Of a stretch of 54,475 nucleotides of DNA, positions 3,916 through 54,475 are shown one piece after another; within the stretch, counting starts at the first letter, position 1, and every line of letters begins with the position of its first letter. Location: the NCBI GenBank assembly GCA_018650645.1, contig JABIFP010000023.1, forward strand, positions 1-54,475. The letters run 5' to 3'. The position numbers were made by a program, and so were the translations under genes. The notes under the pieces were generated by a model. The model was not told the origin of the DNA and did no database searches. It worked only from the letters and a program-made list of their open reading frames with translations. The stretch is from Candidatus Magasanikiibacteriota bacterium. Its GTDB lineage: Bacteria > Patescibacteriota > Patescibacteriia > Magasanikbacterales > UBA922.

Positions 3916-3944
3916 TTGACAAATAGCCAAATGGATGCTATAGT
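3916..3944 (+). promoter_or_regulatory. sigma70-like promoter TTGACA-17-TATAGT upstream of nusA
   Basis: Consensus -35 at 3916-3921 and -10 at 3939-3944. Confidence 0.6.
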
Positions 3945-7214: not shown

Positions 7215-7241
7215 CAAAAAATCGCCTGCTGGCGATTTTTT
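7215..7241. terminator. bidirectional intrinsic terminator
   Basis: AAAAAATCGCC-TGCT-GGCGATTTTTT, overlapping the stop codon of 7240..8382. Confidence 0.75.
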
Positions 7242-8382
7242 ACTCTACTGGGTTTTTGATGGCATCGACTATCCGTTCTCTGGCTTGTTCTAGCGAAACG
7301 CCTTTAAGCGTTACGGATGCTTGCTGCGAATTTCCATATCCACCGAGTGGCGACAGAATCTCTTTTGCATTGAACATTTTTTCTACATGCAAAATGGCGT
7401 GTACTTGGTTATGTTCTGGCGTAACATGTTCATGTAGGAGTAGGGTAAGCTGCGCTTCCGGAGAATTGGCAATAAGTTCTTCAATAATATCGTAGAGTTG
7501 CTGCTCATCTGCACCAGATGTGGCAAAATCTTTTTGCGTAATGGCAGTGCTGACTAATCCAATCGATTCGTCAAAGCTTAAGTGTGCAAGTGCTTGGCCC
7601 CAAAGTCGCAATGTAGAAAGTGATTTTGTTTGATAGAGTTGTTTGATAATAAAATCTCTATCTGCTCCCATGCTTACCAATTTACTTGCAAGCGCGAGTG
7701 AATGTGGTTTAATGTGTTCTTTTTTGAAACTATTTGTTGCCGCAATCATTCCGGTAAGGAGTGCTGTCGCAATTTTTTTATTCATGGTACGCGCAGAAGT
7801 GTTGATCATCATGTTGGTAACAACTTCAGCGGTAGAACTGGCTGTAAGGTCAACAAGGTTTACTGTTCCGTAGTGATCGTTTTTAATATCCTGATCAATA
7901 TTAATGACCGGCACATCAAAAAAGAGATTTGCATTTTGTTCATACAGTGGCCCGAGTTCTTCCAAATCGTGTGCACCAAGTGTTACCACCAAATCGTATC
8001 TAAAATCAGATTGAGATGTTGCCACATGTTGGCGGGTCAAGAATCCACTTTCAGGTGTCACATAAATTTGCAGCTTCTGATCCTTTACATCATAGCTGAG
8101 TTCTTGCAGTCCGGCATCTTTCACATCGATAGAAATAAGGAGCTGCTGCAAATGCGGTACTTTTGGAGTAACGTGCTCCGCTCCATCAAGAAAGGCAAAT
8201 TTTTGTGGCACCACAAAATCATGCGATGCAATATCGATTTGCTTTCCTTGTTGTTCAAGCCATTCTTTTAATGCCAGTGCACTTCCAAGAGCATCGCCCT
8301 TATCATTTTTGGCAAACGCAATAAGCACGTGTTTAGACGAATCAAAAAGATGCTTGAGCTGTTGTTTCTCTGTTCTTGCCAT
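7240..8382 (-). CDS. DHH-family phosphoesterase (NrnA-like)
   Basis: NDKGDALGS motif I and DHHA1-like C-terminus. The position where I expect the DHH triad reads IDQDIKNDHYG (by eye; needs an alignment). Confidence 0.75.
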   Translation of the reverse strand: MARTEKQQLKHLFDSSKHVLIAFAKNDKGDALGSALALKEWLEQQGKQIDIASHDFVVPQKFAFLDGAEHVTPKVPHLQQLLISIDVKDAGLQELSYDVKDQKLQIYVTPESGFLTRQHVATSQSDFRYDLVVTLGAHDLEELGPLYEQNANLFFDVPVINIDQDIKNDHYGTVNLVDLTASSTAEVVTNMMINTSARTMNKKIATALLTGMIAATNSFKKEHIKPHSLALASKLVSMGADRDFIIKQLYQTKSLSTLRLWGQALAHLSFDESIGLVSTAITQKDFATSGADEQQLYDIIEELIANSPEAQLTLLLHEHVTPEHNQVHAILHVEKMFNAKEILSPLGGYGNSQQASVTLKGVSLEQARERIVDAIKNPVE

Positions 8383-8434
8383 AGCTTTTCATTGGACATT
8401 ACTCGTCTCTGTGCTATCAGTAATGTAGCATAGA

Positions 8435-8463
8435 ATAATAGCAGAAATCGATTTTGTTGTCAA
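8435..8463 (-). promoter_or_regulatory. sigma70-like promoter TTGACA-17-TATTAT for the DHH gene
   Basis: Reverse complement of 8435-8463. Confidence 0.5.
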
Positions 8464-8546
8464 CCTAGCGAAAAAAATGGGTTTTGTGGATATTCTTAGA
8501 TATATGAAAAAAGGGCTTATTTTAGCGAAATAGGTGGTGTAGTGGG

Positions 8547-8575
8547 TTGACAAAAGAGGTTTTTTGTGGTATAGT
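8547..8575 (+). promoter_or_regulatory. strong sigma70-like promoter TTGACA-17-TATAGT with TGn extension, pointing into high-GC cassette 1
   Basis: -35 at 8547-8552, TG at 8567-8568, -10 at 8570-8575. The sequence is AT-rich and host-like. Confidence 0.6.
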
Positions 8576-8663
8576 GTGGCGTTATGTTTTGCGATGTATG
8601 ATTCGTTTAGCGAGTTATACACTGCAACGCATACCTTGGAATATGTCCTTGGTGTGAATAGCA

Positions 8664-9270
8664 ACGGGCTGTGGGGCCCTGAATAAATCTAAATCCCACT
8701 GAGAGGCCTAACCATGGCCACCGTTAACCCCGTTCAGGCCGCCTTTGCGCTGGATCTCTGGTTCTGGGGGGAGGACTTCGTTTCGATCCCCAAGGGCGTG
8801 ACCTTCGATATGGTCGTGATGGGGAAGGCTCATCTTCCGGGCAACTGGGAGAGGGGTGATGACGAGGTCCTCGGAGAGACCTTCCGGATCGAGCTCGAGG
8901 GTGGGCTGCACCTCTGCGTGTCGGAGGGGCAGTTCTGGCTCGGCCTGAGCCACCCCGAGGTCAACGAGGGGAAGCCCTTTTTCTCCTGGCGCTACAGGCC
9001 GGGGATGCAGACCGAGCACTCCGTTGAGGTGTTGGGGCAACAGGGATCGACTCGGGAGCAGAAGGTGCGTGCTCGAGCCCAGCGCCATGCGCGGCTCATC
9101 AACGCGCTCATGCAGCTTACCGAGGCTTCTCTGCGCCTCAGCTCCTTTTTCTAGCCGCGCGCAACGCGCGGAAGTCGTCCAGCTCACCCGAGCCGGGCGC
9201 CTGCAGAAGTTCCAACTCTGTAGACCTGCGAGCGACTAGAGTACCACTCGGTATTCGTCGCTCGCACATT
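8664..9270 (+). other. high-GC cassette 1 (approximate bounds)
   Basis: Abrupt composition step. Hand counts give 57% and 63% GC on lines 8761 and 8821, versus 35% on line 4021. Confidence 0.7.
8714..9154 (+). CDS. hypothetical Trp-rich protein (146 aa) encoded in high-GC cassette 1
   Basis: About 85% G/C at third codon positions by hand tally, versus about 65% for the antisense ORF. GAGAGG lies 7 nt upstream of the ATG. No family recognised. Confidence 0.75.
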   Translation: MATVNPVQAAFALDLWFWGEDFVSIPKGVTFDMVVMGKAHLPGNWERGDDEVLGETFRIELEGGLHLCVSEGQFWLGLSHPEVNEGKPFFSWRYRPGMQTEHSVEVLGQQGSTREQKVRARAQRHARLINALMQLTEASLRLSSFF

Positions 9271-9372
9271 CTATTATGTTCTCAGTGCGCTGAGGATGCA
9301 TCGAATGAAAAAGAAAAATCGCTTTCCGGCGATATTTTTTTATGGTATCTTTTTAGTATTAATACTATATAT

Positions 9373-9840
9373 ATGTCAGAAAAAGGATTTCCAGGAGAAG
9401 CCCCATCACAAGCCCCAAAGGCTGAAACAACAAAATCGGTGGAAGCAGTGGAATCGCAGCAACAGAGTAGAGAGCGATTGTTCCTTCAATTGCTTGCAGG
9501 GATGGGAGTATTTGATGCTGATCCAGTAGAATCGGTGGCAGGTCTTCCGTCAGAATATCAAACCGCTACTCCAGGAGGTGCGCTGCAAAATCAGGAAAGA
9601 AGACGAGTCCTTATCCAGGAAGATGGGTCTCAAATCACATTAGGATTAGCCGGACTCCAAGCGCATTTCCATGTGGAAGGGCTCACCTGTGTGCATGTGC
9701 AAGTAGAAGCGGGGAAGGCTCGTATTATAAAAGATAGCAGACACACGGAGCATATAGAAACGCATAGAGCGGTATTAGAAGAAAAACTGCAGCAGCTCCT
9801 GGCAATGGTTGGGAATCCGGAGGTGAGTGGGGAGTTGTAA
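9373..9840 (+). CDS. hypothetical protein (155 aa)
   Basis: Host-like composition. ATG lies in the tatatATG context. Followed by a terminator. Confidence 0.65.
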   Translation: MSEKGFPGEAPSQAPKAETTKSVEAVESQQQSRERLFLQLLAGMGVFDADPVESVAGLPSEYQTATPGGALQNQERRRVLIQEDGSQITLGLAGLQAHFHVEGLTCVHVQVEAGKARIIKDSRHTEHIETHRAVLEEKLQQLLAMVGNPEVSGEL

Positions 9841-9856
9841 TTTTCACACAGATAAT

Positions 9857-9885
9857 AAAAAAGAGCACCATCGTGCTCTTTTTTG
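9857..9885. terminator. bidirectional intrinsic terminator
   Basis: A-run, AGAGCAC-CATC-GTGCTCT, T-run, between convergent genes. Confidence 0.8.
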
Positions 9886-10431
9886 TTACATTGCCAGTAA
9901 AATCTCAGCATTATGCAATCCTTTGGCAACTGCGTATTGCAAATACACAATACTATTTTCATGCTGCTCAGTATCATGCCCGTCCACACAATCAAGTGCC
10001 AAGAGTACCTCAAGGTCTCTTTGGTAGGCATCAATAGCCGTGGTGCGTACACATGTCATGGTGTTTACACCGGTAATAATGAGTCGATTCACATCAAGAG
10101 AAACAAGCAACTCGTCTAAATTTGTGTTGAAAAATGCGCTGTATCGTTTTTTTACTATTACTGAATCGTTTGTATCTTGGTGCAACTTTTGCAACATTTG
10201 TGCGCCATCAGTCCCTTCAATAGTTACTTTTTTATTATTCAGGCGATTATATAGTGGCGCATCCGAGAGATCATCTTTATATTCCTGCCGCACCCAAATA
10301 ATAGGTATGTTTTTTGCGCGAGCCGCGTCAATGAGCTCGTTTGTATGTTTTATAAGCGATTCTTTGTGCTCATTGAGTCTTCCTGAAGTGAAAAAGTCAT
10401 TGAGCATGTCGATGATGAGGAGTGCTGTCAT
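9886..10431 (-). CDS. isochorismatase/cysteine-hydrolase family protein (nicotinamidase-like)
   Basis: ALLIIDMLNDFF and GVNTMTCVRTTAIDA motifs. The ATG at 10431 is preferred over the ORF-track start at 10482. Confidence 0.85.
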   Translation of the reverse strand: MTALLIIDMLNDFFTSGRLNEHKESLIKHTNELIDAARAKNIPIIWVRQEYKDDLSDAPLYNRLNNKKVTIEGTDGAQMLQKLHQDTNDSVIVKKRYSAFFNTNLDELLVSLDVNRLIITGVNTMTCVRTTAIDAYQRDLEVLLALDCVDGHDTEQHENSIVYLQYAVAKGLHNAEILLAM

Positions 10432-10463
10432 ATATATAGATGGGATGAGTGTATAGTATAGCA

Positions 10464-10600
10464 TTGACACCCAAGCATGCAACTGCTACGCTACTATCAT
10501 ATGAAACACGCAAATTACTACGTCGCCCGTGCGGTGCGCAGAGAATTCTGGGCGTAGTTTTGTGTATGAATAGTCGCAAAGCCGCCACAGAGCGGTTTTT
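10464..10600 (+). promoter_or_regulatory. promoter (TTGACA-17-TACGCT) plus ~100-nt structured leader or sRNA ending in a terminator-like hairpin, upstream of valS
   Basis: -35 at 10464-10469. Stem AAAGCCGC/GCGGTTTT at 10578-10599 followed by T-rich sequence. valS ATG at 10651. Confidence 0.4.
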
Positions 10601-10650
10601 ATTGATTTTTAGGGGGCAATTCGTTATCATGGAAGCACATTAATACGCAT

Positions 10651-13296
10651 ATGAAAGAATTACCAAAGGCCTACGAGCCGGCACAATACGAAGATGAGAT
10701 TTACAAGAAGTGGGAAGACTCTGGATTTTTTAATCCGGATGTTTGTGTAGAGAAGGGAGTGACCGCTCCGGATGCTGATCCGTTCAGCATTGTGCTTCCA
10801 CCACCAAATGTTACGGGAACCCTCCATATGGGGCATGCGGTCATGCTTGCAATTGAAGATGTGATGGTTCGGTATAATAGAATGAAAGGGAAGAAGACAC
10901 TTTGGCTTCCTGGAACTGACCATGCAGCCATTGCAACGCAGGAAAAAGTTGAAAGAATTCTTTGGGAAAAAGAAAAAAAGACTCGACATGACATTGGAAG
11001 AGGACCTTTTTTAACGAGTGTAGAAAAATTTGCGCAAGAATCTCATGATACGATTGTTAATCAGGCAAGAAAAATGGGAGCTTCATTGGATTGGAGTCGC
11101 GAAGCTTACACATTAGATGAACAGCGTAATTTTGCCGTGCGTACAGCGTTTAAACGTATGTATGACGATGGGCTTATTTATAGAGGGGACAGAATTGTAA
11201 ACTGGGATCCAAAAATGCAGTCTACCGTTTCAAATATTGAAGTCGACAGAAAAGAAGAGAAAGCATTGTTCTACTATTTTCAGTATGGACCATTTGTTAT
11301 TGGGACGGCTCGTCCTGAAACAAAGTTTGGTGACAAGTATGTGGTAATGCATCCAGAAGATGAACGCTACGCTGAGTATAAACATGGTGATACATTTGAA
11401 TGCGAATGGATTAACGGACAAATCACAGCAACGGTGTTAAAAGATGCTGCTGTGGATCCTGAATTTGGTACGGGTGTAATGACGATTACTCCCTGGCATG
11501 ATATTACCGATTTTGAAATGGCCGAGCGTCACAATTTAGATAAAGAACAGGTGATTGATTTTGACGGGAAACTACTTCCAATTGCCCAAGAATTTGCGGG
11601 TATGCACATTGCAGATGCACGGCCCAAAATTGTAGAAAAGCTGAAAGAAAAAGGGCTCTTGGTACGCGTTGATGAAGAGTACGTAAATAGTCTTGCTATT
11701 AATAGCAGAGGAAAAGGAATCATTGAGCCGCAGATTATGCGTCAGTGGTGGATGGATGTAGACAAAGAGTTTGCGATGCAACATTCAGAAATTCCTGGAA
11801 TCAAATCTGGGGATACAGTAACGCTACAAAAATTGTTGCAACATACCGTTCGTGATGGGCATATTGATATTTTGCCTGAGCGGTTTGAAAAACCATACTT
11901 CAACTGGGTAGACAACTTGCGCGACTGGTGTTTGAGTCGGCAACTTTGGTATGGGCATAGAATTCCAGCTTGGTATAAAGGAGAAGAAGTGTACGTTGGA
12001 ACAGATGCACCAGAAGGTGACGGGTGGACGCAAGATCCTGATACGCTGGATACATGGTTTAGTGCAGGTCTTTGGACATTCTCAACGCTTGGATGGCCAG
12101 ATGCAGAAGCCGCAGACTTTAAGGGATACCATCCAACAGCAGTTCTTGAAACTGGATATGACATTCTCACGTTTTGGGTCATTAGAATGATTATGATGTC
12201 TACCTATCACGTTGGACAAATTCCATTTAAAACAGTGTATTTGCACGGGATGGTTCGTGATGAAAAAGGAAAGAAGATGAGTAAGAATTTGGGAAATATC
12301 ATCAATCCGTTAGACATGATTGAAAAGTACGGAACAGATGCGACGCGTTTGTCTTTGATGATTGGAAGCGCGCCAGGAAATGATACAAAACTTTCTGAAG
12401 AAAAGATTGCTGGGTACAGAAATTTCACAAATAAACTTTGGAACATCAGTAGATTCATGTTGATGAATATTGATGCACCCAAGAAAGATATAGGCCTTCC
12501 AGAAGGAAAGACCTTGGCAGATAAATGGATCCTTTGGAAGATGGAAGAGATCGTCACAAAAGCAGACAATGGATTAGCTGCGTATGATTTTTCTTCTGTT
12601 GGAGAGGCACTTCGTGATTTCACATGGAATGATTTAGCCGACTGGTATTTGGAGATGGCAAAGGTAGAAGAGAGTAGTCAGGATGTATTGAACTATCTAT
12701 TAAATACGATGCTTAAACTGTGGCATCCATTCATGCCATTTGTAACAGAAGCAGTTTGGAAAGAAGTGTATGGAGAAAATGAAATGATGATGGTTGAAAA
12801 ATTTCCTGAAGCAAAAAATTGCGCGGTAGATACGGACATTACATTCGTTGAAGGATCGCTTAGAGAAATGATTACCGCGATTCGTTCACTTCGAGCAGAT
12901 AAAGGAATTGCCCCAGGGAAAAAGCTTTCTGCTACTGTCATAGCAAAAGATCAGGGTCATTTAGAGAGTTCTGCGGCTATTATCAAACAACTTGCTCGGC
13001 TTGAATCATTGACTATCACTGCAAAAGCAGAGAAAACTGATTCAATGGCGAGTGCTGTTGTTGGGTCTGTAGAGATTTTGGTAGATTTTGCCGGCGCAAT
13101 TGATGTTGATGCAGAAAAGGCTCGATTAGAAAAAGAAATCAGCAATGTTGCACCGTATGTAACCGCTCAAGAAAAGAAACTATCAGGGCCGTTTGCACAA
13201 AATGCACCGGAAGCTGTGGTAAATAAAGAACAAGCAAAACTTGCGGAAGCAAAAGAGAAATTAGAAAAACTTCAATCTCAATTATCATCATTGTAA
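10651..13296 (+). CDS. valS: valyl-tRNA synthetase
   Basis: PPPNVTGTLHMGHA (HIGH), KMSKNLGN (KMSKS), C-terminal coiled coil. 881 aa. Confidence 0.95.
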   Translation: MKELPKAYEPAQYEDEIYKKWEDSGFFNPDVCVEKGVTAPDADPFSIVLPPPNVTGTLHMGHAVMLAIEDVMVRYNRMKGKKTLWLPGTDHAAIATQEKVERILWEKEKKTRHDIGRGPFLTSVEKFAQESHDTIVNQARKMGASLDWSREAYTLDEQRNFAVRTAFKRMYDDGLIYRGDRIVNWDPKMQSTVSNIEVDRKEEKALFYYFQYGPFVIGTARPETKFGDKYVVMHPEDERYAEYKHGDTFECEWINGQITATVLKDAAVDPEFGTGVMTITPWHDITDFEMAERHNLDKEQVIDFDGKLLPIAQEFAGMHIADARPKIVEKLKEKGLLVRVDEEYVNSLAINSRGKGIIEPQIMRQWWMDVDKEFAMQHSEIPGIKSGDTVTLQKLLQHTVRDGHIDILPERFEKPYFNWVDNLRDWCLSRQLWYGHRIPAWYKGEEVYVGTDAPEGDGWTQDPDTLDTWFSAGLWTFSTLGWPDAEAADFKGYHPTAVLETGYDILTFWVIRMIMMSTYHVGQIPFKTVYLHGMVRDEKGKKMSKNLGNIINPLDMIEKYGTDATRLSLMIGSAPGNDTKLSEEKIAGYRNFTNKLWNISRFMLMNIDAPKKDIGLPEGKTLADKWILWKMEEIVTKADNGLAAYDFSSVGEALRDFTWNDLADWYLEMAKVEESSQDVLNYLLNTMLKLWHPFMPFVTEAVWKEVYGENEMMMVEKFPEAKNCAVDTDITFVEGSLREMITAIRSLRADKGIAPGKKLSATVIAKDQGHLESSAAIIKQLARLESLTITAKAEKTDSMASAVVGSVEILVDFAGAIDVDAEKARLEKEISNVAPYVTAQEKKLSGPFAQNAPEAVVNKEQAKLAEAKEKLEKLQSQLSSL

Positions 13297-16491: not shown

Positions 16492-16522
16492 GGTTTGGTT
16501 TTATATCAAAATTTGCTATGAT

Positions 16523-16559
16523 AAGGACGCGTTAATTTGGACGCGTCCTTTTCTTTTCT
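16523..16559 (+). terminator. intrinsic terminator of argS
   Basis: AAGGACGCG...CGCGTCCTT stem followed by TTCTTTTCT. Confidence 0.7.
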
Positions 16560-16584
16560 CAAACTTTGGCTCACGGAGGTGACC

Positions 16585-17727
16585 GTGCTAGTTGCGAATA
16601 GCGGTGTAAACCGCAACGAAGAAGCTGTCGCCCCCGAGGCGTCAGATGAGTTTCAAGAGGTTGCCCTGACGCGTGACGTCGGTGCCAACACGCTCGCGTA
16701 TGAGCACTCGATTTGTTTGCACCCCGAGCTGTGGAGTGAGCTGACCGCGATCGAACTCCACAAGTGGTTCAGCCCACGTAGCTGGCGCTACTGGGCGCTG
16801 ATGTTGCCGAGCTTCCTGCTGTTCCTGCTGAACGGTTGGTGGCGAGTGGCTGCGGCCTGGATCATCCAGACGCTGGGAGGTCGAGGCCTGTCAGTCCTCG
16901 TTGGGTCTGGCGTCAACAGGTGCTTTACCGTTGTCAGTAAGTTCGCCTACGAACTGCGCGAACTGGTGACTTCGAGTGGATCGCTTGCGATCGTTTACAA
17001 TTACGTCGTCTGGTCGCACATGGAAGGACTGCATCGGCAGCTGACGTGGGGTGAGCGCTACATGCGCTTCCACATGATGCAGCCGGATGCTGTCGCCGTA
17101 CGGCTTCGGGCCATCAAGACGTTTGAACAGGCGCTCAAGCGGCTGGAGAACCTTCTCACAGATCCTGAGCTCGGTCCGACGTTTACGGTCGAGTCGCCGC
17201 TGATATTCCCGGTCCTCGCTTGTGGTAACGCGCAAGCGGAGATCGACGCTGTCTACAGGCTGTACCAGGTCTTCCCTGAGTTCCGCGGACGGGTGAAGCT
17301 CCATCTTGTGGATGCCACTATGGCGCCACTGAGGGCAGCCGCGGATTACGCGGAAAATCGGGGCCTCGAGGGAAACTTTGAGATCTTCTGCATGAAGCTG
17401 CGGCCATACCTGCGCATGGTCAAGGAGCAGGGTTGGAAGATCTACATCCTCGACATCGTCGGGTTTCTCGACTATTACTCGGGGATCAAGATCGCGAGCC
17501 TTCTCGCTTTCATCAAGGATGTGGTGCAGAAAGGCGCCATGATCATCACCGCGCTCATCAGCAAGAGCAAGTTGGCCTTCTCAGTTCGCTGGTCGACCAA
17601 CTGGCCGCTCCTTCGCAGGTACACGAGGGAGCAGTTCACCTCGTTCTTGCTCAAGGCAGGTTTCGAGGGGAACATCACGATCATCTCCTGCATTGATGTC
17701 CACTTCGTGGCCGTCATCACCGTCTAG
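16585..17727 (+). CDS. membrane-anchored class I methyltransferase-like protein (380 aa) in high-GC cassette 2
   Basis: GTG start 5 nt after GGAGG (16575-16579); the ORF is open from 16537. TM-like segment YWALMLPSFLLFLLNGWW. C-terminal Rossmann-like strand pattern: VLACGNAQ, LHLVDAT, IYILDIVGFLDY, GAMIITAL. Confidence 0.7.
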   Translation: MLVANSGVNRNEEAVAPEASDEFQEVALTRDVGANTLAYEHSICLHPELWSELTAIELHKWFSPRSWRYWALMLPSFLLFLLNGWWRVAAAWIIQTLGGRGLSVLVGSGVNRCFTVVSKFAYELRELVTSSGSLAIVYNYVVWSHMEGLHRQLTWGERYMRFHMMQPDAVAVRLRAIKTFEQALKRLENLLTDPELGPTFTVESPLIFPVLACGNAQAEIDAVYRLYQVFPEFRGRVKLHLVDATMAPLRAAADYAENRGLEGNFEIFCMKLRPYLRMVKEQGWKIYILDIVGFLDYYSGIKIASLLAFIKDVVQKGAMIITALISKSKLAFSVRWSTNWPLLRRYTREQFTSFLLKAGFEGNITIISCIDVHFVAVITV

Positions 17728-17822
17728 TCCTTAGACAAACGCATCTGCAATGCGTTCAGGCTTCTACATATGCCTGAAAAGACAACCGTCGATACCCGCC
17801 AGGGAATCCGGAAGTCACAGCA

Positions 17823-17849
17823 CCCTCGGTCTTCGGACCGGGGTTTTTT
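17823..17849 (+). terminator. GC-rich intrinsic terminator with UUCG tetraloop (end of cassette 2)
   Basis: CCTCGGTC-TTCG-GACCGGGG followed by TTTTTT. Confidence 0.75.
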
Positions 17850-17868
17850 AATCCACCTTTGGTGGATT

Positions 17869-17906
17869 ATCCGCCGAAGCAAGGCGAAGCACTTGCGTAG
17901 GAGGAT
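17869..17906 (+). repeat. dispersed palindromic repeat, long variant (ATCCGCCGAAGC...GCGTAGGAGGAT)
   Basis: Shares both 12-nt termini with 33471-33498. Related to 21064-21089 and 24031-24056. Confidence 0.6.
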
Positions 17907-17919
17907 CACAAGTAGCGCC

Positions 17920-17948
17920 TTCAACTCTCGTACAAAATCTGCTACAAT
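17920..17948 (+). promoter_or_regulatory. promoter-like TTCAAC-17-TACAAT only 8 nt from the histidine kinase ATG (leaderless or near-leaderless mRNA)
   Basis: -10 at 17943-17948. ATG at 17957. Confidence 0.4.
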
Positions 17949-17956
17949 ACCTGCAT

Positions 17957-21120: not shown

Positions 21121-21206
21121 GCTCAGGTGGCGGAATTGGTAGACGCGCTGGCTTGAGGGGCCAGTGACTCGCAAGGGTCGTGGAGGTTCAAGTCCTCTTC
21201 TGAGCA
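21121..21206 (+). tRNA. tRNA-Leu (anticodon GAG), long variable arm, no encoded CCA
   Basis: GCTCAGG acceptor, GGCGGAATTGGTAGACGCG D-arm typical of tRNA-Leu, anticodon arm CTGGC-TTGAGGG-GCCAG, variable arm GACTC-GCAA-GGGTC, T-arm GGAGG-TTCAAGT-CCTCT. Confidence 0.9.
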
Positions 21207-21361
21207 CAAATATAAGACAGCCGATAAGGCTGTCTTATATTTGTGCGAAAAGAGAGAGGGTTTGAACCGGGGGTGGTAGGGGGCAGAGCCCCCTACATGC
21301 TGCGGAAAAGCTGGAAAAACCTGAAGGTTTTTACAAGAGGACACGAAGTGCCGAGTGAAAG

Positions 21362-21380
21362 GTCCTCTTCTGAGCACAAA
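21362..21380 (+). repeat. 19-bp perfect duplicate of the tRNA-Leu 3' end plus 4 nt of flank (GTCCTCTTCTGAGCACAAA)
   Basis: Identical to 21192-21210. Each copy is followed by its own hairpin (21204-21246; 21383-21406). Confidence 0.85.
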
Positions 21381-21628
21381 CGAAGACACTCGAAAGAGTG
21401 TCTTTTGTGTTGACAAAAACAAAAAAAACGTGTAATAAAGAAGCAGGCCCCCCAATTTTGGGGAGGAAGGACAACAATAAGGTGCATACAAAAGCTATAC
21501 CTCCGGATGAACTCCGGGGAGAGAGCGCAGTCTCTTGTCGCAGGGAAGGTGCGACAAGGCGGATTGTGCCGACGGACGCTGAAGGAAGGCCCACGCGTGT
21601 TCACACGCAGGCCCCTTTCGCGGGACGT

Positions 21629-34171: not shown

Positions 34172-34199
34172 TTGACACAACCCCCAAATCGGGTAAAAT
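34172..34199 (+). promoter_or_regulatory. groESL promoter TTGACA-16-TAAAAT
   Basis: Read directly. Confidence 0.55.
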
Positions 34200-44158: not shown

Positions 44159-47100
44159 ATGCGAACGGCGAAACATATTGGAGTAATAGTGAGTCTTGTA
44201 CTATTTTTTGTTGTAAGTATTGGTGGAATTTTTGCATTTGCTCCTGCGCAAGCGGCTCCTGTAGAGGATTTACCGCAAACAACGCAACGATTGGCAATTT
44301 TCAAAGCAGAACAGACTAATCTTTTAAGAAAAGAAGCAAAAAAAGAGACTGATAACTCTATCACAGCCGCAATTTTGGGTGGAGTTCTTGAAATGTTCTC
44401 TAATTTCACTAGACAAATGGCATATGATACCGCTATTTGGGTAGCTAACGGGGGAAAAGGGAAAGGAGCATTGATTTTCCAAGGTGGATTTAACGAATAC
44501 ATGAGCAAGACCATTGGAGACTCCGTTGCGAGTGGTATTGGAGAAATTGGGAAGCCGTTTGGGTTAAATTTATGTCAGGTACCAGATGCTCGGCTTAGTA
44601 TTTTTTTGAAAGTGAATTTGTTTAGACTCTATAGTGATGCGCCTACGGCCAATTGTTCGTGGCAGCAGCTTACACACGGGGGGCTTTTTGACAGAGATGC
44701 GTGGGATCAAAAATATGGTGATTCCAATTTACTTGCAGATACTTTTTCTACCTCACTGAACACAAATTCTACTGATTTGGGTATTGCGATGGGTGCCATT
44801 TATCAAATCGATCGATTAAAAGGGCAAAAAAAAGAAGCAGCAAAGCTTGATAGACAAGAGGGGAGTGGATTCAAGCCGGTAACCAGTCTTATTTCTGGCA
44901 AAGTATTGACGCCTGGGCAACTCGTGAAAAAAGAAACAGAAAAACTTACCAGAACAGAAGACAACAAACTGAGCTCTCAGCAACTAGCGGGTGTGTATAG
45001 TGCTGGATTTGCACAAGTATTGCCTTCAGCAGCATCACTATTTTTAAATACCGTTGCTTCAGAGATGTTAAACAATGTATTTGAAGGACTATTCCCAGAT
45101 CCGGGTGTTGGGTCAAAAGGCACAGGTCTTGGTGGACTGTATGCATCAGAAATTTCGGCCAATAAACAAGCGGTTGATGCTATTTTTGGAAAACTTCTTA
45201 CGGGAGTACCTGTGAAGCAGCAAACTGATTTTGATTTATCACAATTTGCGGCATGTCCGGCAAATCCAGGACTCAACAACTGTGTATTTGATGCGCACAT
45301 GCAGCGTATTTTGGCGCAAGCAAATAATGGGAATGCTGTGACTATTGGTGAAGCATTAGAAGATGGACTTTTACCAGATTGGCCACTTATTTCTCCTAGA
45401 AGAGAAGCTGATCATACGAATATTACCGGATGTCAGACAGGAAAGTTCTGTTATTCAAATATTCAAAAGATGAGAAAGGTGCGTATTTTGCCACTTGGAT
45501 TTGAAATTGCGGCCTTTATGTCAGATCCAGAAAATCCATGGAGATTAAAACAAGTGGTAGATAATTATGATACCTGTAGAAGAGATATCAATGGAACGAT
45601 TATTCCAGATGCACAGTTTCCTTTTTGTGGTTTGATTAATCCAAATTGGGTACTGCGAGCACCGGTTGCAAGATGTGAAACAACCATTATCGGGCCAGAG
45701 CTTATTTCTCCAAAAGGGGCAGCAAGAAGAAGTGAATGTGCGGATATTACTACCTGTATTACAGAAGGACCAAACGGGACCTGTGTGGGTGATCAGAAAT
45801 TTGCATATTGTACAAAAGAAAGTAATACCTGGCAGATTGGAGATCAGTGTCCAAAGGAATACAATACCTGTAGAACGCTCTCAAACAGAGATTCAGGTGA
45901 AGTGGTATCATATTTACTAAATACCGTAGATTACGGTCAGTGTAGTGCAGAAAACAAAGGGTGTCAGGCGTATAGTTTAGAAAAAAATGGCGACGCGTAT
46001 GTTGCCTCAGTTTCACTACAAGATGCGGCTGCAGTAGCTGCGAGCAGAAAAGCTGCAGGAAGAAATCAGGTATTGTACTTTAATGAAAAAGCAGCAGAGG
46101 CGTCAGCTACTTGTAGTAGTGGGTCAGACGGATGTACGCAATTCTTGACAGCAGAGATTGATAACAATACACGTCAAATCGCGCAAAGAGCCGCAGATGA
46201 TGAAGCTGTTGCAGAGCTTGGAGTATACTTCCAGTCTCAAGTGCCAGTGAATTTGCGGTATGCGCCGGACTACCTTGGGTGTTACGATACAAACCCAGAA
46301 ACAGATGAAATTGAATGGCCACAAACAGCTGTTCAGGCAAGATTGAGTGTCTCTCAAGACGAACGGTGTAATGACTACGCGCCTGTTTGTGCGCCAGAAG
46401 AGATTGGGTGTCAGGCATATCTGCCATCGTATCAAGGAGTCGCTATTGGTGGGGAACCAATGGTACCAGGGAAAATCGGTTCATCATTTGTGTGTGATGC
46501 GTCTTGTGAAGGATATGATACATTTAAACAAATCGGTTTTGAAGAATACGGTGCTGGATTTGAACAACAGCAGTTCCCATTGCACTTTATTCCAAATCAA
46601 GCGCAGTCTTGCAACGCGCAAGTAGTTGGGTGTGATGAATTTACTAATATTGATGCAGGTGCAGCAGGAGAAACACGTGAATACTATACATCGCTCAGAT
46701 ATTGTCAAAAACCAGCAGAGGATGGAAGTAACCAGAAAACGTTCTACACATGGGAAGGAAGTATTGAAGACGGATTTTCACTAAAAACATTCCGCATTTT
46801 GCCTGTTGATCAGGCAGAGCTTGCGTACATTCAAAACCTCAATTTGGCAGGTGATCTTGATGATAATTATCAAGACAGCTTCTTTGGTGCAGGTTCTCCG
46901 GCATATGTAGACGACATGAAGGCAACACTTATTAACAATTACGAAGTGTGTAATGAAGAAAACTATCAGATTAGAGTAGATAATCCGCTTGCGGATGGTG
47001 CTGCAGATGATGAGTGTAGAGCAATTTTTGATGATGATGGAAATACCTATTATAGATTAGTAGATCAGCTTGTTACTATTTCAGATGCTTGTCATCCACT

Positions 47101-50100
47101 CAGAAAAACAGAAGCGAATCTCATTGCAGATAATGATTTACAAGCGGGTGTATGTGCAAATAAAGGCGGGCTTTGGGACCAAGGAGCAGCAAGGTGTATG
47201 CGATGTAGTAATGGTGGGGCATTTGATGAAGACAGTGCATCATGTATCTATCAAACAATTTCTTCAGCTGACGGAACACAGTCATGTACAGGGCCAGCGA
47301 ATAATGTAAGTATTTACGAAGGGTGCCGAGCATATGTAGGAAATAACGGAAGAAATATTGAACGCGTATTTATTGATGATTTTGAATCTCAAGGAGAAGA
47401 ACCAGCAGCGCTTGCAGCGGCAAGAGGAGCGTGGGGGCCAGAAGAACAAGTTCGTGTTCTTGCAGAAGCGGTAGACGTTGGGCAGCACTCGTTACTTGTA
47501 GAACACGCAGGTCAGCAGATTGTGACTCGTGCACTTGGTCAAAACAATATGGTACCGGGTGCATCGTATGAAATTTCATTCTGGGCACAAGGAAATGGTA
47601 CGCAGCTTTCGGTGTTCCTTGGAAATGAAGACATCTCGTTTGGCTCATTTACCTTTGACAGAGTCTTAAACAGAGAACGTCCGCTTACTATTGGTGGTGG
47701 ATGGCAAGAATACCGATTAGGACCAGTAGAATTTAATGGAGCAGAAGAGGATTTAGAAAATCTTGCTCTTTGGCTACAGGGAACACCGGTAGAAGGAGAA
47801 CAAGTACGGTACTTTATTGATAAAGTAGTATTAAAACGTCTTCCAGAAAATCTGTACTTGATTAAAGATTCATGGAAAGCGGCAAATGGTGGCGCAGATG
47901 TACCAGCTCTTTGTGATGCTGAACCAAATAACGGATTACCAGGGGCAGCACTTGGCTGTAGAGAATATATCGTAGAAACAACGAGTGCTGTGCATTATGC
48001 AACAGGATTTGAACAGCTCTGTAGAGAAGAAGCGATTGGTTGTCAGCCACTATGGAACACACAAAACACCATTAACGGAGAACAGCCAACAAAAGCGCGC
48101 GCATACCAAGCGTACTGTGCTGGTCCAGATCTGCAGGTGTGTGAAGTTGTTATTGGAGAGCGAGTTGCAGGAAGTTGCCAAATTAAACAAAACGAGCCAG
48201 GATGTTATGTAGAAGAACCAATCGTCATAAATGCTGGAGAAGTATTAGATGCGGCATACATTTCAGATTCAACCGTTATTGTGCCAGCAGATACGCCAAT
48301 TGATGCACCAATTTTCTTAGCAAACAGAGAAGAATTCCAATGTCAGGATGATGCGCTGCTTGGGTGTATGCTTGTTGGAAAAGAAAAACAGTATATTCCA
48401 GATGCGCTCAGTTCAGCGTCATATACGCATGAAGAAGTGTTTGTAAAAAATGATCCATCATTATACAGCACTATTTTGTGTAGAGATGATCAAGTCGGAT
48501 GTGGGCAGTTTAGTGATGATAGTGGTGACTTTTACTTCAAAGATCCGGTAAAAACAGGGCAATCACTGTGTTACTACAATGATCAAGGTGCGCCATATGG
48601 ATGGTTCAAAAAAGATGTAGGGCAGTGTAGTCAAAACAATGATATTGAATGTATTGCGGATGCTGATTGTGGTGAAACACATTTCTGTCAAAATAAAGGA
48701 AAAGTACAGTGTTATGACGGGGGCTTCTTACGAGCTGGTGGTTTTTCTGACATCAGAGCAGCGGGGGATCCGGCTTATGCAAACATGGTTGGGCTCTGTT
48801 CTCCTGAAAATAATAAATGTACAGAATTATTAGACCGAGCAGATACAGATAATGGAACACATCCAGATGGAACACCGTATTATGTGATTTTTGACAGAGA
48901 TATTACTGAGCGCATTAGTAAGTGTGAAGGAAACGTCAGCTTAAATGATGGATGTGTCCTCTTTGATAAAACAGATAATCCAAACAAGATTTTTGACACA
49001 GATTTAACCTATGCCGCAAGTGAAGGCGCGACGCCTCCATTCTCTTCTGTTCCTGCTGTTTCAAATAATAATAATGCAGCACTGAACGATGCAAACATTG
49101 TATTAAAAGTGCAGCGTGACAGAGAATGTAGTGAGTGGTTATCTTGTAAGACGTCTGTGCCTAGAAGGCAAGATGATGGAACAGTAACAGATCTTTGCTA
49201 TGAATATGCAGCATGCAGTGAATTTGGAGAAGATGGCAATTGTATCAACTGGGTAGAAGATGTTCAAGGACCAAATGGTATTCCAGAATCAACAAGCCGG
49301 CTTACCTATAAAAATTATATTCAGCGCGACCAAAGTTGGTACGGGTTTGATTATGTGGGGTATTCGCTCTTTGATAAATATCAAATTAATTACTTAAAGT
49401 ACTTGTTTTTGAATCCAAGTGAATATGCAGGATTGACAGAGGGTAATGTGGTGAAGCCAGAATTTAAGGATTTACGTTCAGTTGTGGTGTATGAACAACC
49501 TTCATACACCCTAGATCAAAATCGGCCAGATGGTCAAGATAATAACCCACTTTCATGTTTAGACAAATCTGATTTTGAATCATGTGGGTTTGTTCAGGAT
49601 GGAGTAAATAAAGGGAGATGTTTACGCGGAAGATGTATTTATCCTGTTGAGGGTGTATTCGAGGGAGATATCTCTGATGAAGATGATGCTGATGTTGCAT
49701 TTGCACAGTTGGAACGTAATAGTTGCAAAAATTTTCCAGAAGAAGATTCGCCGTTTTCAACATTTATTGGTGGAAATGATGCAAAGCAATCAGCAGGTAA
49801 TAGATATACATTTATTACAAAAAAAGAGGGATTTGCAAATGCAAACATTTGTCAGGATGGAAATTGTTCCTGTGGATATACAAAATATACGTATGCAAAT
49901 GGAGAAATGGATTATTGGCAAAATGCAAATATTAAGGGTATTTGTATCAATGGTGATACAGGAAAGATTGGTGGAACCTGTACCGCAGATAGATTTTGTT
50001 TTGATGCTCAAAATAGATTTATTGAAGAAAATGGTGAGCGTGTTGCAAATCCAGAGGTGGAAGGGGCTTGTAGTCTTGTTGAAGAAAAATTGATTACGAG

Positions 50101-53100
50101 CGGTTTCCAAGGGTATTGTCTGGAATATGATTATTCGCGGCCAATTAATGGAAATAGCGGAGACTTTGCATGTTTAACGTGGTTGCCTGCGGATGTTTCT
50201 GCTTCAGGTGCAAATGTGTTCAATGCAAATTTTGAAGCTGGATTTAATTTAGAGCAAGATGCAGAAAATTTTCGAGGGGCGTATTGCGTTGAATCAACAC
50301 AAGTGGCGGCAAGACCACATGCTTTTGCGTATGAACAAGATATCTTGGATACATTCCTCGGAAATGGTGAAGGATCACAGTGGGACAGATTCTTACAAGA
50401 AGGTGTTGATGTCGCGCAGTATGAAGATTTTATTGATGCCGGATTACTTACTCGAGTATATGGACGGTATCAGGAATGGCTTAAAGATGGACAAGCCTGG
50501 CCACCTCGGCAAGCAGAAATAAATGAACTGGGTGAGAATTTTCCTTTTTATGTCAATCCACCGGTAGAGGATCCAGAAACAGGAGGTGTGTTGTATCCGC
50601 TTCCATTATTGAAAGAAAATGCACGGTATCCTGCTGGTATTACCGCAGAGTATTGGGGCGGCGATGCACAAGAAAGTGATGATGAATATGCAGAAAATGT
50701 TGCAGGAGAGGGTGAGCGTGGTCCAGGTCCGGCCTCTTGGTGGTGGTTCTTAGATGTCCAAAGAAGAGGGGAGGTTGCAGGTAGAGATGACTGGCATCTT
50801 CTTGATCAGTTGCATAGAGAGTATCTAGCATTTTTGAACGCAAATGAAATTCCTGAAGGCGATAAGACATATTTTGTAGAAAATCTTCAAGCAGCGCAGG
50901 GTGATCAAATATACCATCCAGGGTTTATTAATATTGGTGCACGTCGATGTGAAAAGGGACTCTATAGCTATACAGCTGGTGATTACGCAAATCTTGTGTG
51001 TAATCAGCCAAATCCCAAAACAATGGCCACAATAGCACAAGAATGGGCATGGCGTGTTCTTGGTGACTCAACATTAGTGCTCCGCGCAGAGCAGGCAGTA
51101 TATAAGGAAAAAAACAATCAGACGCGGGGTGGTCAAGTACATGATGTTGACGCTCCAAATGTTCGAGTAAGAGAAAAAACTATTGATGATGAGCGGTTAA
51201 GTCAGCTTGGCCCACAAAATCCAAGACGGTTAATGCCATCATTTTTAGCTGCCGCGCCAGATGAAGGAGCAGGTAAAACCTATGGGGTAATTATGCACCC
51301 GCCAAGAGATTTTTCTGGAGAAATTTACAAAAGAGCGATGAAGCAGATTTCATATGAGTCTACGGTTCGTGAGTATGATTTCATTTACCCAATAATGTAT
51401 TCACCGGGTAATGTGTACCAGCCAAGAACAGTAGCGCAGGCTCCAAATGATGCCATTTATAATCCTATTTCAGAATCACTCTTTCGTTTAGATCAGGAGG
51501 CTTTTATTAAGGAATCTGATTTACGACGGGTATACTTTACGCCAAGTGCAATTGCGGGTGGATTTGATTATCAGATGTTCCCTCCAATGTGGTCAAATGA
51601 GTTTTATATTGACTTCACAAAGCTGCGTAATCTTCCGGTAAAAAGAGAGATTCGTGCAGTACACATGGCGCGTCCGTGTAATCCGTATGGTAAATGGTGG
51701 AAGACGAATGAAGTATTTCCATCAATGATTCCAGATAGTGGATGTAGGGAAACACCTAAATTGGGTGCTGCTGCCTTAACCTACATGTTAGAAGGTAGGC
51801 AAATTAGACAACCAGAGACAGTGACTTTTGAAATGGATGAAGCTATTGATTATAACGAGGAGATGCGTGAAAGAAATCACGTTGCGCGCAGATATATAGC
51901 AATATTTACCAATGTAGAAAGCGACAAGTCTCCATTTTTGCAGGGAACAGGGTGTGGATTTACAGGAACTGGTGCAAATTGTGAAATAAGTGATAGTAAA
52001 ATTTCGGCTACTCCAGACTTTTTTGACAGGGAAATGGAATGTATTCGCGATGAACGAGACGCAACGGAATCATGGTTTGCGATTGGCATGGACTTTAATA
52101 GTAATGGTGAATTTTTAGGATATGTGTCTAAAGCGTGTAGTTATGGAGACAGAACAGGTGTGCCACAAATGGTAGTTGTTGCAGATTTGTTGGATCAGTG
52201 TACAGCCCTTGCACAAGTGTATAAAGAGTTTGGTCAGGGGGATGATATGATTTTACAAAACACAAATAAAGCATGGACAAATAGAACATGGGGGAATGCC
52301 TTAGATATTGCGCGTTTGCCAGAGCCAGCACTGCATCCATCAAATGCATATCGTCTTGTAAATGATCGAAACGAACCAGTAAAAAGAGAGTCAAGAGACA
52401 TGGTATTGTATGGTGCCATTACCATTGAAGCGCGAAATTTACAAGAAAATGCAACACCAGCTGAGGTAGATGAACTATTTAACAAACTGAGAGATTATAG
52501 TTTTGAGGCAGAAGTGGATGGTGTGTCCTATTCTTGTTATGCGCGCTATGCGGGATTGCCATATAATAGAGGAAGAGAACAGATGAAAACGTGTGAAGCG
52601 CAAGATGCAAGTCGTATTCATGATAATGAAAGCCTTGGCAACCTGCATAGTCAAGAATTGATTAATACGTTGTCAGGAAATGATTGGTCTACCGCAAAGC
52701 GAGGGGTCTTGCAATTATTTGCACAGATTCATCGATTGGTATCGATTGATACATATACAGGGTTGCAGTCAAATGATAATAGAATGCCAGGATTATTGGC
52801 GCAAGGGGCATACTCAGGACAAAAAGTATCTCCGCAAGATGACCGAACAAAATATGGAGCAGTAGATACTTCTTATAATGGCACAAGTGCACGTCCAGGA
52901 GAAATACTCTTACCGCCGCAAATCTATTCTTTGAATCCATTTACCTGTATTGAAAATTCCCCTACAGAAAGTAATCCATGTACCATTGGTGAATATAACA
53001 ATATAACAATCAATGGGAAGAATGGAACCGATACAGATTATGATGGCGATGGAATTGCTGAAGAGGTGGGAAGAACAGGAGAAGCGCGGGCTATTGCGAG

Positions 53101-53905: not shown

Positions 53906-53943
53906 TCTGCTTCCTTCAAAATAAGTAAAGGAAATAGGCAGTG

Positions 53944-53971
53944 CCCAGGTCAGCGAAAGTGCTGACCTGGG
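53944..53971 (-). terminator. GC-rich stem-loop downstream of the minus-strand high-GC ORF
   Basis: 11-bp perfect stem CCCAGGTCAGC/GCTGACCTGGG, 24 nt after the stop codon. Confidence 0.6.
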
Positions 53972-53994
53972 GTGCATGCAAGAGCGAGGCGTGC

Positions 53995-54475
53995 TCAGTT
54001 GCCACGGGCGTAGAAAACTTCAGTGATGTCCCCTTCGGGTGTGGCGCTGATTCGCTCCGTGAGCACACCATCTCCGTCCAGCTCAACCTCGATCCAGGCA
54101 CCATCCTCCTCGTAGTGGAGGGGAAGCTCCGTGCCGAAGTAGATCGCGCCTTCGAGGAGTGCGCCGCGACCATCGGAGGTGAGCTGGCAGTCGTTCGACA
54201 GGGGATTCAGGTGCAGGTACATCGGGTTGTCCAGCATCGGACGATCGACGTGTTCACCCAAGTTGCTGTCCCAAAATGATCCCAGACGGAACCACTCTCC
54301 CTCGATCACCCGGAGGTTCTCGCAGGTGTCGGTGGCCGGCGGGGGCACGTTGGCCTCTTCCCGCTGGCAGATGACCGGCGGGCTCGGGGTGAGGGACTTC
54401 TGAGCGAACCCATCAGGGCACGGCTCGTCGTCCTCCACGACCTCGCAGTCAACGTCCTCGATGCAGTCACGCACC
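53995..54475 (-). CDS. C-terminal part of a hypothetical Cys/Asp-rich protein in high-GC cassette 4 (5' end beyond the window)
   Basis: Strong G/C third-position bias in this frame. TGA stop at 53995-53997. No family recognised. Confidence 0.65.
   Translation of the reverse strand, partial: VRDCIEDVDCEVVEDDEPCPDGFAQKSLTPSPPVICQREEANVPPPATDTCENLRVIEGEWFRLGSFWDSNLGEHVDRPMLDNPMYLHLNPLSNDCQLTSDGRGALLEGAIYFGTELPLHYEEDGAWIEVELDGDGVLTERISATPEGDITEVFYARGN

Follow-up and report, generated by a model that had tools for sequence, protein, structure and literature searches.

Positions 8526-9888 of the stretch of DNA analysed here (the window; 54,475 nt, contig JABIFP010000023.1 of GenBank assembly GCA_018650645.1, a Candidatus Magasanikiibacteriota bacterium) hold two open reading frames (ORFs), ORF146 and ORF155, together with a putative promoter and putative terminators. 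The closest sampled relative lacks the whole unit. On balance, we regard it as a self-contained, species-specific accessory unit of two genes that was gained from a clade-wide pool of GC-rich cassettes, and we infer that the gain took place on the window side. The unit is referred to as cassette 1, and ORF146 is its GC-rich gene.

The window has an overall GC content of ~42% and encodes NusA, ValRS, TyrRS, ArgRS, GroEL, YidC, RF, a class A RNase P RNA and one tRNA-Leu. Its best ValRS matches among species-representative genomes are 65-70% identical, and those with informative labels are Candidatus Magasanikbacteria, members of the candidate phyla radiation (CPR/Patescibacteria). The conserved gene order in Magasanikbacteria is nrnA on the minus strand, then ValRS on the plus strand, TyrRS, ArgRS, a variable segment, HisK, bactofilin and DAGK. 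Cassette 1 lies in the gap between nrnA and ValRS. In the closest sampled relative, whose nrnA protein is 80% identical (contigs L089, NCBI GCA_041294365.1, and L090, Logan), the isochorismatase gene directly adjoins nrnA, 132 nt apart. A third contig, L008, comes from the same assembly as this relative, and its ArgRS and DAGK are 79% and 91% identical to those of the window.

By blastn, L089 matches window positions 7236-8533 and then 9902-10740, at 76-78% nucleotide identity. Global alignment places the left junction at ...GGGCTTATT|TTA and the right one at TTA|CATTGCC. A TTA thus stands at both junctions (8523-8525 and 9886-9888), the right one being the isochorismatase stop codon on the minus strand. 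The isochorismatases of the window and of L089 are both 181 residues long, with the ends EILLAM and EILLLP. Because the isochorismatase stop is followed in the closest relative by the nrnA upstream spacer, 8526-9888 constitutes one indel. The promoters of nrnA and ValRS lie outside it, in DNA common to the closest relative, and the TTGACA of the nrnA promoter is conserved in the L089 spacer. The earlier note on this DNA had proposed comparing the orthologous nrnA/isochorismatase region, and that comparison yielded an empty site in both contigs of the relative, with no copy of the same GC-rich gene. The indel and its contents, preceded by the neighbouring nrnA promoter, are as follows:

8435..8463, minus strand: nrnA promoter, TTGACA-17-TATTAT with TGn, outside the inserted unit
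8526..9888, plus strand: indel and self-contained unit of 1,363 bp, missing in L089 and L090
8547..8575, plus strand: sigma-70-type promoter, TTGACA-17-TGnTATAGT, 11/12 matches to consensus
8583..8713, plus strand: leader of ~131 nt with three predicted hairpins (8589-8627, 8630-8656 and 8666-8709)
8714..9154, plus strand: ORF146, 146 codons, 63% GC, GC content at third codon positions (GC3) 0.82, orphan protein
9155..9266, plus strand: GC-rich 3' flank with stem-loops at 9155-9171, 9174-9200, 9201-9223 and 9227-9266, none with a U run
9318..9342, plus strand: weak intrinsic-terminator-like site, a 6-bp stem (9318-9333) and a T run in a 31%-GC spacer
9373..9840, plus strand: ORF155, the second orphan, GC3 0.385, with host-like third positions and codon habits
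9857..9884, both strands: strong bidirectional terminator, a 12-bp stem between A and T runs (z=-6.6)

The promoter, which the earlier note had read as TTGACA-17-TATAGT with a TG, was recovered at the same position. Four promoter-like sites this close to consensus occur on the two strands of the 54-kb window, where 1.6 +/- 1.4 would be expected by chance; of the other three, one precedes nusA (3916), one precedes nrnA (8463-8435, minus strand) and one is at 34172. The hexamers of the cassette 1 promoter are those of the nusA promoter at 3916-3944. An origin as a duplicate of the nusA promoter region was rejected, as the match is limited to the hexamers. With -35 and -10 elements at 17-nt spacing and a hairpin and U run downstream, cassette 1 has the predicted features of a sigma-70 transcription unit with an intrinsic terminator. 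The leader, put at ~130 nt with a host-like early part in the earlier note, comes to 131 nt with its first ~80 nt AT-rich, and folds better than shuffled sequences (z=-3.6). Its third hairpin pairs with part of a Shine-Dalgarno sequence, GAGAGG (8701-8706), which is followed by 7 nt and the ATG of ORF146. No Rfam family was found at gathering score in the leader or the 3' flank, which gave sub-threshold terminator-like matches only (E up to 1). A reading of cassette 1 as a noncoding RNA was rejected, there being no Rfam match by gathering score or E-value, and the three-base periodicity described below argues for coding.

The four stem-loops past the ORF146 stop codon together reach -63 kcal/mol (z=-6.9). 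The hairpin CCGCGCG-CAA-CGCGCGG lies 2 nt to the left of the 9157-9173 first given for it, and the long hairpin that had been put at ~9229-9267 is present, with two more between this pair. The weak AT-rich terminator at ~9318-9342 also exists; its fold is not better than shuffles (z=-1.35), and read-through into ORF155 is likely. Apart from small shifts in coordinates, the features listed in the earlier note are all present. No promoter-like site occurs on the plus strand between ORF146 and ORF155. The terminator at 9857-9884 closes the unit and now also lies directly 3' of the convergent isochorismatase gene. We hypothesize that transcription would start from the sigma-70 promoter and yield a message whose structured leader partly covers the ribosome-binding site with its last hairpin, and that ORF146 would be translated from GAGAGG-7 nt-ATG. 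The stem-loops past its stop codon probably serve in 3'-end protection or polymerase pausing. At the weak terminator part of transcription would run on into ORF155, and it would end at the strong bidirectional terminator.

GC content climbs from ~0.38 to ~0.64 at cassette 1. The maximum-likelihood GC-rich block, with two change points, is 8695-9204; the support interval of its left boundary (8644-8728) includes the turn near ~8664 seen in the earlier note, and that of its right boundary is 9196-9273. A GC content of 63% is limited to ~8664-9270, that is, to ORF146 with ~50 nt upstream and ~115 nt downstream. The unit is thus a mosaic, with 41% GC in the promoter and early leader, 63% in ORF146 with its 3' flank and 31% in the spacer, and everything outside the GC block (promoter, leader, spacer, ORF155) is host-like in composition. 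One transfer out of a GC-rich organism cannot account for such a host-like frame around a 63%-GC block. We therefore think that the unit came preassembled from the gene pool of related Patescibacteria rather than straight from a GC-rich organism, and that it was not made by a cargo swap in a transcription unit that pre-existed at this locus.

Such a swap was the central proposal of the earlier note: a native promoter-gene-terminator unit in which the original gene was replaced by foreign GC-rich DNA. One part of this description stands, as an outlier ORF does lie amid host-type signals, and a host-type AT-rich promoter, an AT-rich leader and spacer, and host-like ORFs and a terminator surround a sharply bounded GC block. 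The frame, however, is part of the same indel and hence not an old resident of the locus. Replacement within a unit of this locus finds no support, as the promoter, leader, ORF155 and terminator are all missing in the closest relative, which has no such unit there. We saw nothing left over from an earlier cargo; the edges of the GC block show neither microhomology nor repeats, and no relative was found that carries the frame with other cargo. The mosaic is accounted for just as well if the GC block was simply inserted between promoter and ORF155, either earlier or away from this locus. Had the block entered the long leader of an ORF155 unit, a single event would suffice, one fewer than a swap requires. 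No relative of ORF155 or of the frame was found that would favour either course. A swap, if there was any, would have happened elsewhere and left no trace, and we judge cargo replacement to be improbable.

Returning to ORF146 itself, the sequence marks it as truly coding-like and as a compositional outlier. Its GC content by codon position is 0.65/0.41/0.82 (chi-square p=3.5e-12), which agrees with the 146-residue GC-rich ORF called earlier at 8714-9154, and there is no codon-type periodicity in its leader or 3' flank. An antisense ORF that overlaps it shows the mirror image of this periodicity and nothing more. Compared with the window, ORF146 has 63% against 42% GC and a GC3 of 0.82 against ~0.30-0.35. 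Potentially, the GC block could be captured foreign DNA without present function, untranslated or decaying, in which the frame is open only through recent capture. Such a capture would be in keeping with the absence of a homologue, of a confident fold and of polymorphism data; the antisense frame is open too, and the chance of an open frame of this length in 63%-GC DNA is, by our own estimate, ~1% per frame. The strong three-base periodicity falls in exactly the frame of ORF146, though, and functionless DNA is also hard to reconcile with the well-placed Shine-Dalgarno sequence, with a promoter close to consensus 131 nt upstream of the ORF and with the fixed state of the unit in every contig sampled, which makes this the least probable of the readings considered.

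The ORF146 protein could not be assigned to a family, as the earlier note had also found, by domain, protein or fold searches. It has no match in Pfam, NCBIfam, PHROGs, PADLOC or PDB, and a word-indexed search of 5.8 billion protein clusters returned only the protein itself. An HMMER scan of 1.84 billion representative proteins returned ORF146 and two repeat-driven matches whose E-values are inflated by the repeats; both were rejected as relatives, one (P0004) being an immunoglobulin-repeat protein and the other (P0005) a kinase-like protein with a 26-residue tandem repeat. Plasmids, phages and viral contigs yielded nothing. The protein is rich in Trp, as noted previously (3.4% against 1.4% in four host proteins), and no signal peptide or membrane segment was predicted from its sequence. 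Structure prediction combined with Foldseek, which had been suggested for it, could be carried through with limited return: the single-sequence AlphaFold model is of low confidence (predicted local distance difference test, pLDDT, 49), with seven strands in a predicted beta-rich region (21-104) followed by a modelled 33-residue C-terminal helix (113-145).

ORF155 likewise has no family and no relative in Pfam, NCBIfam, PHROGs, PADLOC or metagenome and viral contigs. The metagenome collection did not return the window's own ORF155, so it seems not to include this population. The single-sequence model of ORF155 has a pLDDT of 43, and Foldseek searches with the two models gave nothing below E=0.78. 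The two ORFs were rejected as diverged paralogues, since their local alignment is no better than shuffles (z=1.0). Neither belongs to a known toxin, antitoxin or defence family in PADLOC, Pfam, NCBIfam or PHROGs, and this null result for known families is compatible with an undescribed toxin-antitoxin or defence system. We commit only to a putative soluble accessory protein made from a bicistronic message, and our guess is that ORF146 is a dispensable strain-level protein that acts with ORF155.

The unit is fixed in its population, with the same context in at least 23 contigs. These contigs, from JGI, ENA and Logan assemblies, share the cassette 1 arrangement at 100% identity, the sole exception being a single-base gap in one of them (L100), and contigs from many such assemblies are 100% identical to the window over stretches of up to 18 kb. 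The arrangement is consequently no assembly artefact or chimera and represents a real, clonal and widely sampled population. No variant with an empty site or other cargo was seen among the contigs read from this population. In many independent assemblies contigs start or end inside cassette 1, at ~20 scattered positions in 8552-9604; they include an 18-kb contig ending at 8969 and a 27-kb contig starting at 8552. These breaks probably reflect low coverage or GC-dependent coverage loss, since no alternative sequence was seen; their scatter also fits this better than a fork in the assembly graph.

In more distant relatives nrnA and ValRS are separated by a gap of 124 bp to 2.1 kb, and in none of them does it contain the isochorismatase gene, ORF146 or ORF155. 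The two ORFs are absent throughout 1.76 Mb of related loci from these relatives, and no cassette 1 homologue was found among 163 related loci; a first genome-collection scan with nrnA as the query gave no match. The isochorismatase gene (9886-10431, minus strand) is confined to the window organism and its closest relative, the others having nrnA next to ValRS, which implies at least two separate fillings of the gap in this lineage. Six of the relatives examined carry a small, conserved membrane ORF immediately upstream of ValRS that the window lacks. This ORF has 83-153 codons counted from the first start, a conserved core of ~85-95 codons and the motif ...RN.RVE.DKAWETS...PFIKKWW, and occurs at these positions:

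L011, 9747-9998: membrane ORF near ValRS
L012, 9537-9998: membrane ORF near ValRS
L013, 9733-9999: membrane ORF near ValRS
L014, 5654-5935: membrane ORF near ValRS
L015, 9745-9999: membrane ORF near ValRS
L020, 9711-9995: membrane ORF near ValRS

A two-taxon indel has no direction of its own, and the unit might be ancestral, lost by deletion in the lineage of the closest relative, in which case cassette 1 would be older than it looks. A second GC-rich island of the window, described below as cassette 2, demonstrates that GC-rich genes can be old in this clade. An ancestral unit is at odds with the absence of both ORFs from the loci of the more distant relatives. It is also at odds with the lack, in this case for ORF146 only, of any homologue in the protein databases, which include the closest relative's assembly. 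We therefore consider an ancestral unit unlikely.

Several points weigh against gain from a GC-rich pool. The polarity of the indel is unproven, given one close relative and no outgroup with isochorismatase at the locus, and a deletion in the relative would fit the alignment equally well. The NCBI and Logan contigs of that relative are possibly from the same reads. We found no donor, no mobility gene, no attachment (att) site and no terminal repeat, and no part of the unit turned up a second time; at the ends of 8526-9888 the longest inverted match is 7 nt and the longest direct match 4 nt, neither amounting to a terminal repeat, and no recombinase occurs among the JGI-called genes of 1-18 kb or the ORFs scanned in 21-42 kb, where not every ORF was covered. 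As the population contigs are all identical, selection on ORF146 is not measurable. A GC3 of 0.82 looks recent, yet no homologue is known even from metagenomes of the same samples, which is awkward for any simple transfer story. Because cassette 2 is old and still GC-rich, high GC says little in favour of a recent import here. That ORF146 looks fresh by its GC3 and yet lacks homologues is a paradox easier to understand if ORF146 belongs to a GC-rich pool internal to the clade, and the absence of cassette 1 from the nearest relative still argues for its recent gain.

Evidence for such a pool comes from the remainder of the window and from related loci. The window holds four GC-rich islands, 4-30 kb apart:

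8.5-9.9 kb, plus strand: cassette 1, ORF146 island
16.5-17.9 kb (16579-17950): cassette 2, ORF396 island, a GC-rich ORF between ArgRS and HisK
21.4-22.3 kb: cassette 3, ORF291 island, just 3' of tRNA-Leu and an exact 19-nt copy of the 3' end of that tRNA
53940-54475, minus strand: fourth island, 63% GC and GC3 0.79, with an ORF from 53,995 that is cut by the window end

All four GC-rich ORFs have a GC3 of 0.70-0.82. They contain zero AGA and zero TTA codons and use CTC at least as often as CTG; in their pooled codon counts the four Gly codons are evenly used and AGG makes up 16%. Kinship among them was rejected, as they are mutually unrelated. A comparison of codon usage with a host mirror via third-position transitions gave a weak, non-significant correlation by hand calculation and was not used as evidence. 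Structured 3' flanks occur at all four islands (z -5.5 to -6.9). The three islands that can be compared with relatives each lie at a break in gene order, and in each of these three gaps relatives have GC-rich ORFs of other kinds. L023 has, between nrnA and ValRS, a 64%-GC ORF of 141 codons ~135 nt downstream of an 11/12 promoter, and L009 has GC-rich ORF fragments in the same place behind a 10/12 promoter; both are on the strand opposite to cassette 1 and unrelated to ORF146. The leaders of cassettes 1 and 3 and of the cassettes in L023 and L009 have no motif in common. Across 16 Magasanikbacteria loci, 16 of 101 locus-unique ORFs exceed a GC3 of 0.55, compared with 5 of 185 shared or rare ORFs (p=1.6e-4), and 4 of these 5 are one family. 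ORF146 belongs to a class of GC-rich, mostly orphan ORFs at Magasanikbacteria gene-order breaks. In the members looked at, the class shows a host-type promoter, as in cassettes 1 and 3 and in the gaps of L023 and L009, or a structured 3' flank, as in all four window islands.

The second island tells a different story about age. Syntenic homologues of ORF396 stand between ArgRS and HisK in L008 (2284-3429, 61% identity), L009 (34%) and L014 (28%), and all are GC-rich. The family profile has methyltransferase-like motifs (VLACGxAQ, LHLVD and VGFLDY) and matches 80 further loci (L110-L189), many of which adjoin a homologue of the window HisK, a HisKA_7TM kinase. Under identical residues, 36% of four-fold sites are identical between the window and L008 copies of ORF396, the same proportion as in ArgRS. 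The GC state of these sites is independent between the two copies (50/30/20/14; 49 expected with GC in both). GC content at four-fold sites (GC4) is nonetheless 0.70 in the window and 0.61 in L008, against 0.25-0.43 in six flanking genes. In loci with the window gene order the family exceeds its flanks by +0.05 to +0.23 in GC (mean +0.15), and in other CPR lineages the mean excess is +0.03. Comparative data of this kind identify the ORF396 family as an old resident whose high GC persists across the subclade, not as a recent import. Its upkeep could be due to selection on composition or structure, to biased conversion or to repeated replacement from GC-richer CPR.

This undercuts the premise that GC-rich means foreign. 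ORF146 remains a compositional outlier, as first noted, but cassette 2 is GC-rich while old and syntenic, and composition alone no longer proves a foreign origin of cassette 1. ORF146 might not be foreign at all but a gene from the Magasanikbacteria pool that evolves fast and acquires or maintains its high GC in situ. Candidate causes would be gene conversion with a GC bias, at hot spots of recombination, or selection that acts on base composition or on RNA structure; the same force would keep cassette 2 GC-rich. In its favour, the ORF396 genes of the window and L008 are saturated at four-fold sites and still hold their GC4, syntenic ORF396 homologues in many Magasanikbacteria have a GC3 of 0.52-0.76, with the family in other CPR having the composition of its flanks, and the four GC-rich window ORFs share codon habits. 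The puzzle of an orphan with a fresh-looking GC3 would also disappear. On the other side, the AT-rich leader in the same transcript is not enriched, and ORF146 has no relatives through which its history could be followed. For the single pair of window and L008, the residual correlation at ORF396 has an upper bound that leaves room for decay from an ancestor of extremely high GC. To our knowledge, no strong gene-local GC-raising process of that kind has been established in bacteria. We treat an in-place origin of the GC content of ORF146 as possible, though doubtful. A similarly tentative proposal is that Magasanikbacteria keep a gene class at a GC3 of ~0.6-0.8, in genomes with a GC3 of ~0.33, by a gene-local process; high GC would then mark a special evolutionary regime and not foreign origin.

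Several observations concern the other islands and the gaps of relatives. Directly past the ArgRS stop codon, in 16495-16560, a promoter-like TTGGTT-16-TGnTATGAT was seen by eye, followed just before ORF396 by a terminator-like hairpin (AAGGACGCG...CGCGTCCTT and a T run), which could be an attenuator-type arrangement. The same ArgRS-HisK gap holds a KAS III-like GC-rich ORF in L011 (17871-19085), one for a weakly MtN3/SWEET-like membrane protein in L016 (17243-17908), and a GC-rich family common to L012 (16491-17630), L023 and L029 that has, by eye, an NAD-binding look. In L029 (12576-13949) a GC-rich, Cys-rich and apparently secreted protein is encoded downstream of tRNA-Leu. By these resemblances, the GC-rich pool is functionally mixed. 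The GC-rich island of L009 at 9189-9802 (minus strand) is broken into three ORF pieces that lie in different frames and are all high in GC3, and looks like a frameshifted gene, either decaying or mis-sequenced. At cassette 3, the 3' end of tRNA-Leu(GAG) is repeated perfectly over 19 nt (21192-21210 and 21362-21380, 170 nt apart), where none is expected by chance; the repeat looks like a scar of site-specific integration. A terminator hairpin, a TTGACA promoter at 21410 and GC-rich ORF291 lie 3' of the second copy. L008 has different content past its tRNA-Leu, and L016 and L029 have GC-rich DNA past theirs too. The fourth island, with a strong GC-rich hairpin past its stop codon (53942-53975), lies directly behind the terminator of a giant gene at 44159-53854. 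This gene is a single ORF of 3,231 residues with an N-terminal signal-like segment and many Cys-rich stretches, and probably encodes a giant surface protein.

Taken alone, cassette 1 is nothing out of the ordinary: an orphan gene of one species at a variable site. Orphan genes restricted to one species were found in a large survey to have, as a rule, the GC content of their genome, and to be AT-richer when of viral origin (PMC11293555). Among 125 Patescibacteria genomes, many islands were reported with transfers mostly among Patescibacteria, and competence and pili were proposed as the route (PMC12455944). Literature searches specific to Patescibacteria/CPR or Magasanikbacteria yielded no description of GC-rich cassettes in these bacteria. 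The seemingly native signal frame travels with its gene, which suggests that the accessory genes of such tiny genomes travel as cassettes ready for expression, and do so without visible mobility machinery. The rule that odd composition means recent import fails within the same window, where a syntenic clade-wide gene stays at a GC3 of ~0.7 in homologues that have deeply diverged core genes beside them. If a gene-local GC-raising force is real, composition-based island detection in CPR genomes would be affected, and these genes would offer a bacterial test case for biased gene conversion or selection on composition. Beyond cassette 1, the persistently GC-rich resident gene ORF396 is the observation most worth following.

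Among known systems, cassette 1 most resembles the genomic islets and ORFans found at hot spots, which share its atypical composition, absence from the nearest relative, position at a variable gene-order break and lack of a family. Acquired and orphan genes are usually AT-richer than their genome or equal to it. Cassette 1 differs from an islet in lying more than 20 GC points above its genome, in having no mobility gene, att site, repeat or homologue in a sampled donor, and in bringing its own host-type promoter and terminator. Atypical composition is present, although it is a weak criterion in this clade; the orthologous site is empty in both contigs of the close relative; and ORF146 has neither a donor lineage nor homologues elsewhere. 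Integron cassettes are alike in having one small ORF, a palindromic structured 3' region and unrelated 'cassettes' around them. They differ in bearing attC, in lacking promoters of their own and in standing in arrays; cassette 1 is preceded by a promoter of its own (11/12), and the window islands do not form an array but are scattered. No attC core pair (RYYYAAC/GTTRRRY) occurs on either strand of 8383-9900, which has a single GTTRRRY at 8706 (minus strand), and neither an integrase nor attI was found in the parts of the window checked. Signs of an insertion sequence, a miniature inverted-repeat transposable element or another transposon (terminal inverted repeats, target-site duplication) are absent, the junctions sharing TTA alone. 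tRNA-targeted islands find their likeness in cassette 3, with its tRNA-Leu and the repeat of its 3' end; cassette 1 differs, without tRNA, att-like repeat or integrase, as the only tRNA of the window is this tRNA-Leu (21121-21207) and none lies at 8.5-9.9 kb. The vls antigenic-variation locus of Borrelia burgdorferi is a GC-rich gene-conversion locus in an AT-rich genome. The window differs from vls-like loci in that no silent copies or repeats were found that could act as conversion donors; the likeness is that of a gene-sized region far GC-richer than its AT-rich genome and kept so over time, the latter seen here for cassette 2 only.

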